64,000 nt of DNA, taken from contig OZ241979.1 of the NCBI GenBank assembly GCA_965204235.1, forward strand, positions 2,638,103-2,702,102, in the 5' to 3' direction. Under the pieces are notes generated by a model. It had not been told where the DNA came from. It did not search any database and was given only the letters and a program-made list of their open reading frames with translations. The stretch's first letter is position 1. Each line of letters starts with the position of its first letter. Origin of the DNA: an uncultured Candidatus Binatia bacterium. GTDB taxonomy: Bacteria > Desulfobacterota > Binatia > UBA9968 > JAJDTQ01. A program made the translations under genes and the position numbers. This document shows, piece after piece, positions 19,093-31,263 of this stretch.

Positions 19093-19323
19093 ATGATCCT
19101 CAAGCTGCTCATACTGGCCTTGCTCGTCTATCTGCTGCTGGTGGTGGTCTATTCGAGCGTGAGAGGACGAAAGAGCGGGTCCGCGGATTCTTCCCGCGGA
19201 GAAACCATGGTCCTCGACCCCCACTGCAAGAGCTACGTCCCCCGGAACGAGGCCTACCAGTCCCGGGGCCACTATTTCTGCAGCGAGGAGTGCGCACGGG
19301 CCTACGTTTCGCAGGAGGCGTAG
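19093..19323 (+). CDS. Small membrane protein with TRASH/YHS-like metal-binding tail
   Basis: N-terminal TM helix; MVLDPHC..YVP..YFCSEEC. Confidence 0.75.
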   Translation: MILKLLILALLVYLLLVVVYSSVRGRKSGSADSSRGETMVLDPHCKSYVPRNEAYQSRGHYFCSEECARAYVSQEA

Positions 19324-19397
19324 GGGATGCCGGTTCGAGAGGAAGTGCAGTCCGGGATCTTGCCAGAGGACGCGACGCGCGTGCCAGGGTTCTGAGC

Positions 19398-20225
19398 ATG
19401 TGGTCAAAATCCGAGTTCAAAGCTGAATTGCGCGAACTGGCTGCGAGTCTCACGGATCACGCAAGCACCAGCGACGGCCAGTGGACGGTAAAGGGATTCA
19501 TCGACACCTTCAAGAACGTCTATACCATTTCGTCGGACACCAAGGTCGTCTCCAAGATTCTGGAAATTCATCTCTTCCCCAGGATCCATGCTTTTGCGGA
19601 ACAGCATGGATTCGCCGTCGTCTTTGCAGAGCATCAGAATTACTATCCTGACATATCGTTCGTCTCGAAGGATGATGAATCCATCAAATTCGCGTTGGAC
19701 TTCAAGACGACCTATCGGATGCCTGATAGACCGTGGCTTTGCAACGGCTTTACACTCGGTTCCCACGGCAGGTATTTCAAGGAACGGGCGAGCACAAAGA
19801 ACATCCAGTTCCCTTATGGTTCCTATTCAGCCCATTTCTGTCTCGGAATCATCTATGACCGCACACGAGGCGCCAGAGTTGACGAGACGAAGTGTCACGC
19901 GATTGGAGAACTCCATTCCATCACTTCGGTCATCTCGAATATCCAGTTTTTCGTAGCCGAGAAGTGGAAAATCGCGGGAGACAAGGGCGGCTCGGGCAAC
20001 ACTGCGAATATCGGAAGCATCCAACGAATTGGCGACATCCTGTCAGAGAACGGGATGTTCGCCAACCTGGGAGAAGAATGGTTCAACGACTACTGGATGA
20101 ACTTCGGCAAGATTACTGTCCATGATGAATCTGGACGGACAAGGAAGATCACGTCCCTGGAAGAGTTCGTCGTTTATCGCGGCGGTGACGTTTCTCTCAT
20201 CATCCCGAGGAACAATCTCGAATGA
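19398..20225 (+). CDS. Type II restriction endonuclease, EcoRV family
   Basis: SDTKVVSKILE, QNYYPD..ALDFKTTY, FTLG, KW.IAGD..GSGNTANIGSI match R.EcoRV motifs as recalled. Confidence 0.85.
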   Translation: MWSKSEFKAELRELAASLTDHASTSDGQWTVKGFIDTFKNVYTISSDTKVVSKILEIHLFPRIHAFAEQHGFAVVFAEHQNYYPDISFVSKDDESIKFALDFKTTYRMPDRPWLCNGFTLGSHGRYFKERASTKNIQFPYGSYSAHFCLGIIYDRTRGARVDETKCHAIGELHSITSVISNIQFFVAEKWKIAGDKGGSGNTANIGSIQRIGDILSENGMFANLGEEWFNDYWMNFGKITVHDESGRTRKITSLEEFVVYRGGDVSLIIPRNNLE

Positions 20226-21169
20226 GCACGTATCGAACCATCGTTCCGCCAATCAAATGCCAGGGTATCAAGACCAGGCTCGTGCCCTGGATTCGGGCAG
20301 TGATTCCGTCCGATTTCGATGGAAGGTGGATCGAGCCTTTCATGGGGTCCGGAGTCGTTGCGTTCAACGTCCGTCCAAGTCAGGCAGTTTTGGCGGACTC
20401 GAATCCCCACCTGATCAACTTCTATAGGGCAATCGCAGACAGGAAGATTACTTCCACTTCAGTACGCAGGTTTCTGAAGAAGGAAGGTTCTGCGCTACTG
20501 CGCTCCGGAGAGCAACACTACTACACGATCCGCGATCGGTTCAATCGTTATCATGATCCGATGGATTTCCTGTTCCTGAACCGAGCCTGTTTCAACGGAC
20601 TGATTCGCTTCAACCATGACGGCCAGTTCAATGTTCCGTTCTGTCGCAAGCCGGGTCGTTTTTCCCAGGCGTACATCACGAAGATCTCCAACCAGGTCCG
20701 GGCGGTTTCGGACATACTGAGCCTTGGAGATTACGAGTTTGTCTGTCGGGATTTTTCCAACACGCTTGCCGCTGCCAGGTGTGGAGATTTCCTCTACTGC
20801 GATCCTCCGTACATTGCGCGTCATTCCGACTATTTCAATGGGTGGGACGAACAATGCGAAAGAGAGATGGCGGCCTTGCTGTCCTCTGCGCCATGCAGGT
20901 TCATTCTTTCAACATGGCACAGCAACGATTTTCGAGAAAACGAGTTCATAGACAGCCTGTGGTCGGATTTCCATCTCCTGACCAGGGAGCACTTCTACCA
21001 TGTCGGGGCCAAGGAGGATAACCGAAACCTAGTGATCGAGGCGCTGCTCACGAATTTCCACGTGACGCTGTACGAAGCGCCTGAAGAAGCGGTGGAGCAA
21101 CTGATGCTTCTCGAAACCGGCGCAAAGTACGATGATGCGCCAAGTCTTGGTCCAAGTCCGGTCGAATGA
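20222..21169 (+). CDS. Dam/D12-class N6-adenine DNA methyltransferase, M.EcoRV-like
   Basis: VPPIKCQGIKT.LVP, EPFMGSG, FLFLNR.CFNG..RFN, DPPY. Confidence 0.9.
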   Translation: MSTYRTIVPPIKCQGIKTRLVPWIRAVIPSDFDGRWIEPFMGSGVVAFNVRPSQAVLADSNPHLINFYRAIADRKITSTSVRRFLKKEGSALLRSGEQHYYTIRDRFNRYHDPMDFLFLNRACFNGLIRFNHDGQFNVPFCRKPGRFSQAYITKISNQVRAVSDILSLGDYEFVCRDFSNTLAAARCGDFLYCDPPYIARHSDYFNGWDEQCEREMAALLSSAPCRFILSTWHSNDFRENEFIDSLWSDFHLLTREHFYHVGAKEDNRNLVIEALLTNFHVTLYEAPEEAVEQLMLLETGAKYDDAPSLGPSPVE

Positions 21170-26834: not shown

Positions 26835-26942
26835 TTGCATAGGACCGGTTATCTCCGTTGCATCTGCCCGGTTATCCTTGTTGCATATGGCCGGTTGTAT
26901 TGGTTACATATAGCCGGTTACTTCCATTGCATATGCCCGGTT
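26835..26942 (+). repeat. Array of five phased direct repeats, period 23 bp
   Basis: TTGCATAGGACCGGTT / TTGCATCTGCCCGGTT / TTGCATATGGCCGGTT / TTACATATAGCCGGTT / TTGCATATGCCCGGTT at 26835, 26858, 26881, 26904, 26927; 7-bp variable spacers. Confidence 0.9.
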
Positions 26943-26954
26943 CAGGCAGATGAC

Positions 26955-28217
26955 ATGATGGCAAGCGGCGCGTACCACTCCCGGATAGGCGATGCAGAGC
27001 TCGCCCGCCGGCTGCAATCCGCGGGCGCGGTGCTCATCGAGGGCCCCAGGGCCTGCGGCAAGACGGCCATGGCCCGCGAGGTGGCGGCCAGCGAGGTCTT
27101 GTTGGACGTGGACGAGAACGCGCGCCGCGCGGCCGCGGTGGATCCGATGCTGGTGCTGGCGGGGGACGCGCCGCGGCTCATCGACGAATGGCAGGTGGAA
27201 CCGGCGCTGTGGAACCACGTCCGGCGGGCCGTCGATCGGGGCAGGCTTCCCGGACAGTTCATCCTGACCGGCTCGGCGGCGCCCGCGGACGACCTCACGC
27301 GCCATACCGGGGCGGGGCGCATCTCCCGGCTCCGGTTGCGCACCATGACCTTGCTGGAGACCCGCCTGTCCACCGGCGAAGTCTCGCTGCGGGACCTGCT
27401 GCACGGCCGTTTCGAGGGCTGTGCGGATCCCGGCCTGACGCTGCGGGAGGTCGTCGCGCAACTTTGCCGGGGCGGCTGGCCCGGTGACCTGGACCTCTCC
27501 GATGAAGCCTGCCTGACTGCTCGCGCCGATTACCTGGAGGAAATCCGCCGCGTCGATATCTCCCGCCCGGATGGGGTCCGGCGCGACCCGGAAAACGTCG
27601 GCCGGGTGCTCCGCTCGCTGGCCCGGAACGTGGCCACCACGGTCAGCGCGCGGACCCTTGCAGCGGATGCCGGCGGCGAAGGCGGCCCGCTGGACGGCGA
27701 CACGGTGCGCGGCTACCTGGAGGCCCTGCGTCGGCTCATGGCCTACGAGGAGCAGCCGGCCTGGTCGCCGCACCTGCGCTCCCGGTCCTTCCTGCGTCGT
27801 GCTGCGAAACGGCATTTTGCCGATCCCTCCCTGGCGGCGGCCGCCCTCGGTGCGACTCCCGCCCGGCTGTTGGCGGACCTGGAGCTTCTGGGCCTGTTGT
27901 TCGAGTCCCTGGCCTACCACGACCTCTCCGTCTATGCCCGGGCCTGCGACGCGGCCGTCTATCACTACCGGGACAATACCGGCCTTGAAGTGGATACGGT
28001 GGTGGAGAACCGTCAGGGCGACTGGTGCGCCTTCGAGGTAAAGCTGGGCGCCGGGCAGACCGATGACGCCGCCCGGACCCTGCTGAGGTTCCGCGACCGG
28101 GTGGATGCGGCCAGGACCGGCGCGCCGCGGCTCCTGGGCGTCCTCGTCGGTTCCGGCTACGGCTACCTCCGGGACGATGGCGTAGCGGTCATACCCATAG
28201 GCGCGCTGGGACCCTGA
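26955..28217 (+). CDS. AAA+ ATPase (AAA_14) with C-terminal DUF4143 PD-(D/E)xK-like domain
   Basis: IEGPRACGKT, LIDEWQ, FILTGSA, GGWP, K.HFADPS, LFES, YHYRD..GLEVD..EVKLG. Confidence 0.88.
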   Translation: MMASGAYHSRIGDAELARRLQSAGAVLIEGPRACGKTAMAREVAASEVLLDVDENARRAAAVDPMLVLAGDAPRLIDEWQVEPALWNHVRRAVDRGRLPGQFILTGSAAPADDLTRHTGAGRISRLRLRTMTLLETRLSTGEVSLRDLLHGRFEGCADPGLTLREVVAQLCRGGWPGDLDLSDEACLTARADYLEEIRRVDISRPDGVRRDPENVGRVLRSLARNVATTVSARTLAADAGGEGGPLDGDTVRGYLEALRRLMAYEEQPAWSPHLRSRSFLRRAAKRHFADPSLAAAALGATPARLLADLELLGLLFESLAYHDLSVYARACDAAVYHYRDNTGLEVDTVVENRQGDWCAFEVKLGAGQTDDAARTLLRFRDRVDAARTGAPRLLGVLVGSGYGYLRDDGVAVIPIGALGP

Positions 28218-28329: not shown

Positions 28330-29394
28330 TCAGATCTCCCGGAAGAAGTAGGGCCTGATGGATTGCAGGCGGTCTTCGTAGGTGTCCGGGTTCAGCAGCC
28401 ACAGGGTCGCCGCGATGCTGCTCAGGAGCGAGTTCCCGTCCTGGGAGGTGAAGCACATGCCCACCACCTCCCGTTCCCCCCTCAAGGCGAGGCTCTGGGT
28501 GACGATGGCGGTGTGGTTCAGGATGCGGCCGAACAGCCCGTGGTCCCGGCCGAACGAGAACACCGACGCCGAGGACTTCTTGTTGGTGACCGCGATGCGG
28601 GGGTTCGACCGCAGCCGCTGCACGAGCTGGTCCATGCCCACGGCCCGTTTGAGGATCAGGTTGAAGTGGATGGTGTGCATGTACTGGGTGTTGATCTTGA
28701 GGGCCGACGAGTAGATGTTGAGGTCCAGCCCCAGGGACTGGAACAGGTAATAGGCGTCCCGTCCCTGGTGGGTCCCGAACCGTTCGTCGTCGTGCCGCCC
28801 CACTTCGGGGGCCGGAATGAACTCCCCCTCCTGGCTGATGTCGTTGGCCCGGCGCATGCAGACGAACCTTCCGGCTTCGAGGTTGTCCTCCTTCTCCGGG
28901 CCCAGGGCCAGGGTGTCGATGAGCACCGCCAGGTTGTGGGTGTTGCAGCTCACCACCTGGATGAAACGGTCTTCCTCCCGGCGGAGCGCGGCGTCGTTGA
29001 TGCCCCGCGCGTACATCTTGCCGAAGCCGAACTCGCTTCCCTGCGCGATGAAGCCCTTGCCGTTGCCGGCGTACCGCTTGTAGTACTTCTCCTTGTTCTC
29101 GTTCCCCACCGGCGTGCAGTCGATGACCACGGTGGCCCGCTCGATGGCGGCCTCCGACTCGTAGGCGGGCTCCATCCCCAACTCCACGAACCGGTCCCAG
29201 TGCTCCCTGTCCGCGCTCAGTCCGGCCCCCTTGTCCCTGAGGGCCGTCACCTTCGACCGGTCGGTCACCCGGGGAGTCTGCTTGTTGAACGTCACCTCGT
29301 CGATCCCGAACGCCTCCCTGAAGGTCGATAGAATACCGATGAGGGGCTCACCGATGGTGCCCGTGCCGACAACGTGAACGATCTTCCGGTCCAT
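28330..29394 (-). CDS. Archaeal-type (class II) glyceraldehyde-3-phosphate dehydrogenase-like protein
   Basis: GTGTIG Rossmann motif, VIDCTP, AQGSE, VVSCNTH catalytic Cys, RRAND. Confidence 0.7.
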   Translation of the reverse strand: MDRKIVHVVGTGTIGEPLIGILSTFREAFGIDEVTFNKQTPRVTDRSKVTALRDKGAGLSADREHWDRFVELGMEPAYESEAAIERATVVIDCTPVGNENKEKYYKRYAGNGKGFIAQGSEFGFGKMYARGINDAALRREEDRFIQVVSCNTHNLAVLIDTLALGPEKEDNLEAGRFVCMRRANDISQEGEFIPAPEVGRHDDERFGTHQGRDAYYLFQSLGLDLNIYSSALKINTQYMHTIHFNLILKRAVGMDQLVQRLRSNPRIAVTNKKSSASVFSFGRDHGLFGRILNHTAIVTQSLALRGEREVVGMCFTSQDGNSLLSSIAATLWLLNPDTYEDRLQSIRPYFFREI

Positions 29395-29610
29395 GGCCTC
29401 GACTCCTCACGACTCGAAGCAGGTTCCGCGCCGCGCCCTTCCATGCCGCGGGAAAACCGACGCGCTCTGCGTGTCTCCCGCGGCGCGGCCCTGCAAGAAC
29501 CCTCCCTCATACCACACAAATCCTGTTCGGGAAACGGGGAGGAGGCGGTGCGGAAGGGCGTCAGATGGATGTGGACTGGGGTCCAGGGTCAAGGGGACCG
29601 TGGACTGATG

Positions 29611-30291
29611 CTACAGCAGCTTGGCCGAGGCGATCATCAGGGCGGCGAAGGCGATGACCACGCCGATGTTCCATCTGATGATGTCCACCTTGAGGTCAAC
29701 GAGTTCAGCTTTGGTGGCCATGTTCTTCTCGATGTTCTCTACCCTTCCGGTCAAGGATTGCACCTCGGTGGCCAAATCCTTGAGTTCGGCTTTGGTAGCC
29801 ATGTCCTTCTCGACCTTCTCGAGGGCGGCTTTGGTCGCCAATGCGGCCATGTCCTTCTCGATCTTCTCGACGGCGTCCTTGGTGGCCAGTGCGGCCATGT
29901 CCTTCTCGATCTTCTCGAGGGCGGCTTTGGTGGCCAGTGCAGCCATATCCTTCTCGATCTTCTCGACGGCGTCCTTGGTGGCCAATGCGGCCATGTCCTT
30001 CTCGACCTTCTCGAGGGCGGCTTTGGTGGCCAATGCGGCCATGTCCTTTTCGATCTTCTCGACGGCGGCTTTGGTGGCCAGTGCAGCCATATTCTTTTCG
30101 ATCTTCTCGAGGGCGTCCCTGGTGGCCAGTTTTTCCTGTTTTTCGGTCAGGGTGTCCACCTTGGATATCAGATCGGCGGTAGCGACGTTGGAGGCCGTGT
30201 CGAAAATTTCGACCACCGCTTCTGCGGTCTGACGGGACAAACCAGCGGTCTCGAGGCGGGTTACCGCCTTGTGTGTGTCAAGGGCGTGCAT
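29611..30291 (-). CDS. DUF1640/CCDC90-like membrane-anchored coiled-coil protein, paralogue 1
   Basis: Head LDTH..V.RL..AG....QAEA-type, ATK neck motifs, C-terminal IIRW + TM helix. Confidence 0.8.
   Translation of the reverse strand: MHALDTHKAVTRLETAGLSRQTAEAVVEIFDTASNVATADLISKVDTLTEKQEKLATRDALEKIEKNMAALATKAAVEKIEKDMAALATKAALEKVEKDMAALATKDAVEKIEKDMAALATKAALEKIEKDMAALATKDAVEKIEKDMAALATKAALEKVEKDMATKAELKDLATEVQSLTGRVENIEKNMATKAELVDLKVDIIRWNIGVVIAFAALMIASAKLL
29800..30126 (-). repeat. 48-bp coding tandem repeat (6 x 16 aa plus a 13-aa copy)
   Basis: ATK(A/D)A(L/V)EK(I/V)EKDMAAL units. Confidence 0.9.
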
Positions 30292-30297
30292 GTTCCT

Positions 30298-30326
30298 ACT
30301 CTACACCTTGTCTCGAATTCTGGAAA
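30298..30326 (-). promoter_or_regulatory. Putative leaderless sigma70 promoter, paralogue 1
   Basis: TTTCCA-N17-TAGAGT-N6-ATG. Confidence 0.55.
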
Positions 30327-30416
30327 GAGCCTGGCAGTGGCGGCGCCAGGGAGGACGCGCCTCGGTCGCTCCTCCGGGGACGCCGGCAGGGACGAGAGAG
30401 TCGTCCTTTCCCACCC

Positions 30417-30445
30417 TTTCCAAACTCCCCGGCAAGGTGTAGGAT
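30417..30445 (+). promoter_or_regulatory. Putative leaderless sigma70 promoter, paralogue 2
   Basis: TTTCCA-N17-TAGGAT-N6-GTG. Confidence 0.55.
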
Positions 30446-30451
30446 CGGAAC

Positions 30452-31057
30452 GTGCACGCCCTTGACACACACAAGGCGGTAACCCGCCTCGAGACGACCG
30501 GCATGTCCCGCCAGACTGCGGAAGCCGTGGTCGAAATCTTCGACACGGTGGCCAACGCAGCCGCCACCGACTTGGCGACCAAAGCCGACCTGGGGGCCGT
30601 GGCTGCCAACGTGCAGCACCTGGACGACAGGGTGCAGGACCTGGGCAACACGGTGCAGCACCTGAACGACAGGGTGCAGCACCTGGACGACAAGGTACAG
30701 CACCTGGACGACAGGGTGCAGGACCTGGGCAACACGGTACAGCACCTGAGCGACAGAGTGCAGCACCTGGACGACAGGGTGCAGGACTTGGGCAACACGG
30801 TACAGCACCTGAGCGACAGAGTGCAGCACTTGGACGACAGGGTGCAGGACCTGGGCAACACGGTACAGCACCTGGGCGACAGAGTGCAGCACCTGAACGA
30901 CCGGGTGGTAGTCCTGGAACAGACCATGGCAACCAAGTCCGACTTGGCAGAGGTCAGGTCCGACCTGGCCGAGGTCAAGACCGACATCATCAGATGGAAC
31001 GTCGGCTTGATACTCGCCGTGGCCGCGGTGATGATCGCCGCGGTCAAGCTGCTCTGA
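30452..31057 (+). CDS. DUF1640/CCDC90-like membrane-anchored coiled-coil protein, paralogue 2
   Basis: Same head, LATKADL neck, heptad stalk, MATKSDL, IIRW + TM helix. Confidence 0.8.
   Translation: MHALDTHKAVTRLETTGMSRQTAEAVVEIFDTVANAAATDLATKADLGAVAANVQHLDDRVQDLGNTVQHLNDRVQHLDDKVQHLDDRVQDLGNTVQHLSDRVQHLDDRVQDLGNTVQHLSDRVQHLDDRVQDLGNTVQHLGDRVQHLNDRVVVLEQTMATKSDLAEVRSDLAEVKTDIIRWNVGLILAVAAVMIAAVKLL
30611..30904 (+). repeat. 21-bp coding tandem repeat (14 heptads; 63-bp higher-order unit)
   Basis: VQHLDDR / VQDLGNT / VQHLSDR units. Confidence 0.9.
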
Positions 31058-31263
31058 CGCGCCGGTCCTCGCCTGCGGGGTTGTTCGGGCAGGGTTGGCC
31101 CGCTTCTTCGCGGGCTCCCGCGAGGTTCTCTCTTTCTTGGGCGGTGGATCGGGTTTCGGCGGGAGGGCGTTCCTTGTGGACGTCCACGGGTCGAGTTGGG
31201 GCGACTGGCCGGTCGTCCTCCGAAATCCGTGGGGTATCATGAAATCCATCGAAGGGAGGTCAC

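Follow-up and report, generated by a model that had tools for sequence, protein, structure and literature searches.

In the window analysed here, a stretch of 64,000 nucleotides (nt) from an uncultured Candidatus Binatia bacterium (G000:C1:2638103-2702102, where G000 refers to the source genome, a single contig of 4.0 Mb), two genes predicted to encode membrane-anchored coiled-coil proteins stand head to head and are joined by a perfect inverted repeat of 43 nt. An earlier reading of this DNA, to which we refer as the original prediction, had regarded the arrangement as a possible cassette in which recombination within the repeat would swap promoters between two types of stalks. Our analysis favours a simpler account, to which we assign a probability of about 0.75: the two genes are paralogues from the DUF1640/CCDC90 family that are transcribed divergently and carry one homogenised patch at their 5' ends, and no switch is needed to explain them. 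We use W_minus as working name for the gene on the minus strand and W_plus for the gene on the plus strand. The following features are central to the argument:

29611-30291, minus strand: W_minus, 226 amino acids (aa), ATG start; a head, seven 16-residue stalk units and a C-terminal hydrophobic anchor.
30452-31057, plus strand: W_plus, 201 aa, GTG start; head and anchor as in W_minus with a heptad stalk; the resident gene of the site.
30248-30290, minus strand: left arm of the perfect inverted repeat, nt 2-44 of the coding sequence (CDS) of W_minus, within the apparently homogenised tract from -5 to +44.
30453-30495, plus strand: right arm of the perfect inverted repeat, nt 2-44 of the CDS of W_plus.
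30291-30452, no strand assigned: centre between the perfect arms, 162 nt, with both promoter-like regions, the first bases of the start codons (A versus G) and a unique spacer of 88 nt.

The open reading frames are those described in the original prediction, a divergent pair with nearly identical heads, and its perfect repeat of 43 base pairs (bp) was located at the same nucleotides of both coding sequences. Both proteins are nearly the same over their first 41 and last approximately 25 residues, while their overall identity in BLASTP is 34%. The perfect block is embedded in a larger, imperfect inverted repeat, whose arms of 174 nt (30154-30327 and 30416-30589) match at 79% and are 88 nt apart, in agreement with the predicted unique spacer of about 90 bp. 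The imperfect homology beyond the block had been underestimated at about 50 bp and actually continues into the CDS for around 90 nt. For the 162-nt centre, a DNA fold z-score of -3.98 was obtained, which originates largely from the mirrored boxes in front of both genes pairing with each other. Plain paralogy accounts for the larger repeat as well as for these mirrored promoter boxes. What goes beyond it is the 43-nt identity itself, which exceeds chance.

The history of the block is manifested in an ungapped alignment of positions -45 to +135 from four sequences, W_minus, W_plus, the gene A770, which is located at around 770 kb of the same genome, and the orthologue of W_plus from the closest relative, G010, in which we distinguished a block extending from -5 to +44 from its flanks. 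In the flanks, 25 informative sites pair W_minus with A770 and W_plus with the G010 orthologue, a single site shows a third pattern and none pairs W_minus with W_plus. Conversely, both informative sites of the block (2/2) pair W_minus with W_plus (Fisher p = 0.0028). Of the 49 block positions, only 1 differs between the two window genes, namely the A/G of the start codon, compared to 42 of 131 in the flanks, and cross-type pairs differ at 6-9 of these 49 positions. The probability of finding at most one difference in 49 positions is 0.0017 at the rate observed between A770 and the G010 gene and rises to 0.013 if the lowest rate among cross-type pairs is assumed. In line with these numbers, the longest identical run between W_minus and W_plus comprises 43 nt and does not exceed 17 nt in any other cross-type pair of heads. 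Since other copies vary at synonymous sites of the block, the identity does not result from constraint alone.

A second line of evidence comes from codon 4, for which we compared the window genes with the 33 proteins returned by a protein search restricted to the head. Leucine is found at this position in both window genes, in 2/2 proteins of the W_minus type and in four full-length proteins of the W_plus type that are 98-100% identical to the one in the window. All 17 A-type proteins have isoleucine instead, as do P0013 and eight more distant proteins of the W_plus type. This distribution suggests a single change that was copied between neighbours before the related strains diverged. W_minus and W_plus have two derived states in common, the CTT codon for Leu4 and an A at position -3, which are both absent from their own closest kin. 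Together, the alignments argue strongly that the perfect block is part of a tract of approximately 50 bp (-5 to +44) that was homogenised after W_minus and W_plus had become neighbours. The exchange proposed in the original prediction is thus retained in form of a mosaic with a short tract, but not its description as ongoing, as a single event common to the related strains is sufficient. Replication template switching within an imperfect palindrome can homogenise its arms, with the same outcome in the sequence as conversion. The patch in the heads may therefore have originated either from such a switch between the arms or from gene conversion of the RecA type, as described for tufA/tufB. Neither component of the pair is of a new kind, since the DUF1640 family is known, as is conversion between paralogues in inverse orientation.

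The relationships within the genome and the genus provide a context for this event. The head and its promoter occur in four copies in G000, in W_minus, W_plus and the two 770-kb genes A770 and B770, and a further, more distant gene of the family is found elsewhere on the contig. The segment containing W_minus is additional relative to the equivalent locus of G010. These elements are:

G000:C1:769636-771163, tandem genes: A770 (170 aa) and B770 (144 aa), with heads and promoters identical to each other and stalk units of 13 residues containing MATRDD.
G000:C1:3807208-3807765, minus strand: further family member, the best match to PF07798 in the genome (77.5 bits), whose stalk is encoded by a 33-nt array repeated 10.6 times (11-residue units).
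29543-30376 of the window, minus strand: segment extra relative to G010, containing W_minus together with its promoter and, on the 3' side, about 45 nt of flank, as defined by BLAST and by a junction alignment with the G010 locus.

The heads of A770 and B770 are about 80% identical to those in the window on the DNA level, and the homology to these copies covers positions 29566-30336. The two genes constitute a tandem duplication of approximately 1.09 kb; a short, more distant family member of 88 aa is placed divergently from B770, and a truncated copy of it precedes A770. At the site in the window, the pair is flanked by a gene resembling type II glyceraldehyde-3-phosphate dehydrogenase (GAPDH) and by tldD, which are only about 100-360 bp apart in 16 of 18 genomes of the same genus. 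The gap widens to 569 bp in G002 and to 643 bp in G010, each harbouring one gene, and to 1872 bp in G000, which is the only genome with two. The genes in G010 (145 aa) and G002 (128 aa) are both of the W_plus type, face tldD and are orthologues at the same site. Since these two occupied genomes carry exclusively the W_plus type, W_plus is the resident gene. W_minus, in turn, is a member of a second subtype, which is otherwise represented by the copies at 770 kb, and it was either added in the lineage of G000 or lost from G010. A BLAST comparison of the intergenic DNA of the empty site in G009 with the window flanks, aimed at the ends of the whole inserted block, gave no alignment.

The distribution of the head is narrow. 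Within the genus, the 47-aa head was detected in 3 of 28 genomes, four times in G000 and once each in G010 and G002, and a search of the genome collection for related loci returned only those of G010 and G002. An exact scan with a degenerate 40-nt head pattern gave zero matches in genome contigs and zero in metagenome contigs. On a wider scale, in a sample of 81 genomes from the class, 11 have matches to PF07798 at E <= 1e-6, and a single genome can have as many as nine. In G045 (G045:C1:3866882-3867930) and at several places in G077, some of these matches crowd within a few hundred bases on one strand, as judged by eye from the table of matches, and the family appears to have expanded repeatedly in the class. 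Several of the sequencing runs that hold the stretch are labelled as sponge or marine metagenomes. Two of the runs, X5 and X9, contain a contig whose W_plus-like head deviates at about ten positions including Leu4 to Ile (window 30379-30640) and which diverges from the window upstream of 30379/30381, nearly at the junction defined with G010 (30377). As X9 additionally contains the centre contig of the window itself, it holds either two strains or an extra copy.

The upstream regions of both genes follow the respective subtype. The mirrored box of the original prediction, CTTTCCA-N10-CAAGGTGTAG-N4-GGAAC-start, is present on either side, with TAGAGT and TAGGAT as distinguishing hexamers:

30298-30327, minus strand: promoter-like region of W_minus, TTTCCA, 17 nt, TAGAGT, 6 nt, ATG; of the same type as in the 770-kb copies.
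30416-30445, plus strand: promoter-like region of W_plus, TTTCCA, 17 nt, TAGGAT, 6 nt, GTG; of the same type as upstream of the G010 orthologue.

Both starts are thus found 6 nt past a TAnnnT hexamer, which itself follows TTTCCA after 17 nt, and the ATG of the G002 gene is likewise located 6 nt past its hexamer. No Shine-Dalgarno sequence is found at the usual distance ahead of the start of either W_minus or W_plus. On the basis of this spacing, the transcripts of both genes would be leaderless. The search of the genome for CAAGGTGTAG suggested in the original prediction did not reveal a genome-wide box: with six copies, of which four belong to this gene family, compared to 4.3 expected from base composition, its interpretation as regulon motif was rejected, and the sequence is better described as a promoter feature of the gene family.

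Several observations weigh against the proposed account. The signal inside the block comes from two informative sites only, and as no part of the head is more conserved than the block, some of its identity is due to constraint. W_minus differs from A770 at 12 of 91 positions, but W_plus from its G010 orthologue at only 3 of 91, so that the subtype of W_minus is older than the split between the species represented by G000 and G010; it may have come from another strain, and the polarity of insertion versus loss is uncertain. The assignment of promoters and leaderless transcripts is a reading of motifs and their spacing, and the consensus promoter scan flagged neither box, both of which match 8 of 12 positions by hand count at a threshold of 9. 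W_minus modelled as a monomer with AlphaFold reached a mean predicted local distance difference test score of 47.2 and a predicted template modelling score of 0.23, a quality insufficient for searching by fold. Finally, in the graph of the metagenomic reads, the 222-nt unitig covering 30261-30482 extends into each perfect arm for 30-31 nt and then stops, since k=31 is shorter than the perfect inverted repeat of 43 nt, and either orientation of the centre fits.

Latter observation bears directly on the mechanism that had been proposed for this locus, an invertible promoter cassette in which recombination within the 43-nt arms would flip positions 30291-30452, exchange the promoters together with the first base of ATG and GTG and thereby toggle the relative expression of both stalk types. 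Its attraction is evident: the perfect repeat encloses the two promoter-like regions as well as the A/G of the start codons, its length is above the minimal identity that is usually quoted for RecA-dependent exchange, and a homogenised arm would be the expected remnant of recurrent events. We nevertheless consider this mechanism improbable. As already remarked in the original prediction, there is no adjacent recombinase gene, and we detected neither a recombinase nor an invertase in a scan against Pfam of 28 open reading frames from about 14-47 kb, a set of 6 plus 22 of which latter were picked by length and by GC content at third codon positions, so that small or atypical recombinase genes could escape. 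Each gene has kept the promoter of its own subtype, at 8 of 9 informative sites between -45 and -6, and the assembly thus shows the unflipped state. In either orientation, a near-identical promoter-like region would be placed 6 nt upstream of each start and neither gene would be silenced; because a flip leaves both genes with near-equivalent promoters, the element would not work as an on/off switch. The head-to-head arrangement is also unique to the lineage of G000 among the 28 genomes of the genus, and no other head-to-head pair of PF07798 matches was seen across the 81 genomes of the class, as judged by eye from the match table at E <= 1e-6. All 19 runs listed for the stretch, none of them an RNA data set, consist of Logan contigs (k=31), and the contigs of the four examined (X1, X3, X5 and X9) display neither a joint nor a change of strand, which is uninformative since the contigs break inside the repeat. 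In X5, positions 30294-30364 are not covered.

A flip of the 162-nt centre through 43 nt of identity is physically possible, although it is needed to explain nothing that we have seen. In a version of this idea that does not require a recombinase, flips in a minority of cells would swap TAGAGT with ATG and TAGGAT with GTG between the 16-residue and the heptad stalks, and the patch would be the footprint of their repetition; we judge this to be only slightly less doubtful. Were it true, the toggle combined with changes of the stalks by whole units would provide sponge-associated Binatia with a heritable and reversible mix of rods that present one head at different heights. On the whole, inversion is unlikely and would be of little consequence for the two genes. 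A comparably low probability is attributed to the view that selection on the nucleic acid, acting on the 5' end of a leaderless mRNA or on the site of a regulator, has kept the block identical. The block begins at the presumed 5' end of the transcript and is the most conserved DNA stretch of the family, with a cross-type divergence of 12-18% compared to 28-32% in the flanks, but the A770, B770, G010 and G002 copies deviate from the window copies at the 6-9 of 49 positions mentioned above, synonymous sites included, and the window copies share the derived Leu4 CTT and -3 A to the exclusion of their own closest kin. Least credible by far is a simple recent inverted duplication, which the original prediction had named as its own counter-explanation, or an artefact of assembly creating a false palindrome. 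Long-read assemblies are known to contain inverted duplications as artefacts, and the two heads are near-identical as proteins. This explanation is contradicted by the 42 differences in 131 flanking positions, by the different periods of the stalk repeats and by the kinship of W_minus, whose nearest relatives are the 770-kb copies and not W_plus. Moreover, the contig covering 30261-30482, which spans both starts, is found in X1 and X3, from one organism and one study, and in X9, from another organism and another study. As it recurs in runs of two studies and organisms, the head-to-head join is real. We thus return to two paralogues with a single homogenised patch as the preferred account of the locus.

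The assignment of both proteins to the family, which the original prediction had based on a layout like that of DUF1640, CCDC90 and MCUR1, is borne out by their scores against Pfam PF07798 (CCDC90-like, formerly DUF1640) of 35.0 bits for W_minus and 42.1 bits for W_plus at a cut-off of 33.5, although in the genome-wide search W_minus exceeds the cut-off only if its pieces are summed (34.6 bits). A profile constructed from ten family members matches on the sequence level the head of CCDC90B in the PDB (6h9m, E 9.3e-7, profile positions 4-81) and the alpha/beta coiled coil Tcar0761 (5apz, E 6.9e-8). NCBIfam provides no family model for either protein, with no match for W_minus and only matches far below cut-off to unrelated coiled-coil proteins for W_plus. 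In PHROGs, all four proteins scanned match phrog_17872, whose function is unknown, and W_plus additionally matches many unrelated coiled-coil families. The architecture is completed by the following elements:

29798-30130, minus strand: stalk array of W_minus, 48 nt repeated 6.9 times at 88%, encoding a 16-residue unit with an L-A-T-K motif.
30611-30907, plus strand: stalk array of W_plus, 21 nt repeated 14.1 times (equivalent to 63 nt repeated 4.7 times at 89%), encoding a heptad stalk.
29615-29706, minus strand: anchor DNA of W_minus, 78% complementary over 92 nt to the anchor of W_plus at 30962-31053.
31106-31125, plus strand: terminator-like hairpin with T-rich tail, 3' of W_plus.

The stalks are unrelated, as predicted, and consist of different tandem arrays. 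The similarity of the C-terminal anchors, which had equally been noted, generates the second inverted repeat of 92 nt and is a case of plain paralogy lacking a homogenised patch. In both proteins, a hydrophobic stretch of about 20 residues, as read from the sequence, is followed by two to three residues at the C-terminus. The consensus of the β-layer has been described as [aliphatic]-A-T-K-[polar]-[D/E], a motif that is found at the start of the stalk in DUF1640 membrane proteins, and the β-layer constructs of the same study are described as trimers (Hartmann et al. 2016, eLife, PMC4786415). This motif is matched by the neck of W_plus (residues 41-46, L-A-T-K-A-D) and less well by the neck of W_minus (L-I-S-K-V-D). 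M-A-T-K precedes the anchor in both proteins, and the motif recurs in every 16-residue stalk unit of W_minus, which suggests that β-layers may also be formed within stalks. The PDB entry 6h9m lists three chains. By analogy with these structures, each protein could fold into a trimeric rod with a C-terminal membrane anchor, in which the stalk would determine how far from the membrane the conserved head is held, and the cell might thus produce two rods from leaderless mRNAs, both displaying the same head but differing in length and periodicity. For the mitochondrial homologue MCUR1, a review describes that its head binds MCU and that the length of the stalk is crucial (PMC8224590, citing Adlakha et al. 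2019, Structure).

Among close relatives, the length of the stalk varies by whole repeat units. When compared to W_plus, the 13 proteins of its type, which range from 117 to 173 aa compared to 201 aa in the window, contain internal gaps that are multiples of seven residues in 12 of 13 cases, the exception being P0005 with a gap of nine; P0033 additionally lacks 17 N-terminal residues. The nearest of these alleles are 98-100% identical over the aligned columns. The two proteins of the W_minus type, with lengths of 162 and 178 aa, align to the product of the 226-aa gene with gaps of 16+48 and 32+16 residues and are identical at 160 of 162 and 176 of 178 positions. A-type proteins differ by 7, 13, 20, 26 or 47 residues. 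Changes of this kind could be introduced by slippage or unequal exchange inside the repeats. In G000, stalks of four periodicities are found, of 7, 11, 13 and 16 residues.

Beyond the pair, three further regions of the window deserve mention. At 19290-21169, a gene for an EcoRV-like restriction endonuclease (PF09233, E 8e-115) adjoins a D12-class adenine methyltransferase, and the GC content at third codon positions is 0.63-0.64 in this pair compared to 0.8-0.9 in its neighbours; it is probably an acquired restriction-modification pair. The gene at 26835-28217 encodes an ATPase with AAA_14 and DUF4143 domains, whose listed TTG start gives rise to an odd leader of about 40 residues that is rich in Cys and Tyr, and for that reason the true start is probably located further downstream. 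The left neighbour of the pair (28330-29394) weakly resembles the archaeal-type (type II) GAPDH, scoring 82.9 bits in NCBIfam at a cut-off of 185 with no match in Pfam, and is conserved beside tldD across the genus.

A single genome thus combines the head and anchor of DUF1640 with stalks of four periodicities, two of which are built around β-layer motifs. The mitochondrial members of the family are reportedly sensitive to the length of the stalk. The natural alleles differing by whole units offer a ready series for probing stalk length and alpha/beta periodicity in the family. The locus also carries a note of caution, as a perfect inverted repeat that joins divergent genes resembles a DNA switch, but in this case the repeat results from paralogy and one short homogenised patch.

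Invertible promoter switches and shufflons include fimS with FimBE, hin with hix and the hsdS shufflons. The locus in the window is similar to them in that inverted repeats bracket a short segment with promoter-like sequence. It differs in that the repeats are CDS of paralogues, that a flip would leave a promoter on both genes and that the 28 open reading frames scanned near the pair include no recombinase. On the protein level, the pair has in common with CCDC90B and MCUR1 the N-terminal head motif, the A-T-K β-layer neck, the coiled-coil stalk and the putative C-terminal hydrophobic anchor, but both bacterial proteins lack a transmembrane or targeting segment at the N-terminus. Their stalks are tandem DNA repeats of recent origin that vary between strains by whole units. 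With alpha/beta coiled coils of the Tcar0761 type and their MATKDD β-layers, the family shares the motif, which occurs at the neck and ahead of the anchor as well as in each LATKDA/LATKAA (16-residue) and MATRDD (13-residue) unit. In contrast to those, the spacing of the motif is 13 residues, readable as 6+7, or 16 residues (9+7) with no pure nonads, and the stalk of W_plus consists of plain heptads. The closest parallel to the events in the heads is provided by tufA and tufB of Salmonella, inversely oriented paralogues for which gene conversion has been described (PMC5485169). In that account as in the window, a contiguous tract is homogenised non-reciprocally between inverse copies on one chromosome; in the window, the copies are separated by 162 nt instead of 762 kb and are only about 70-80% identical outside of a tract of only approximately 50 bp.

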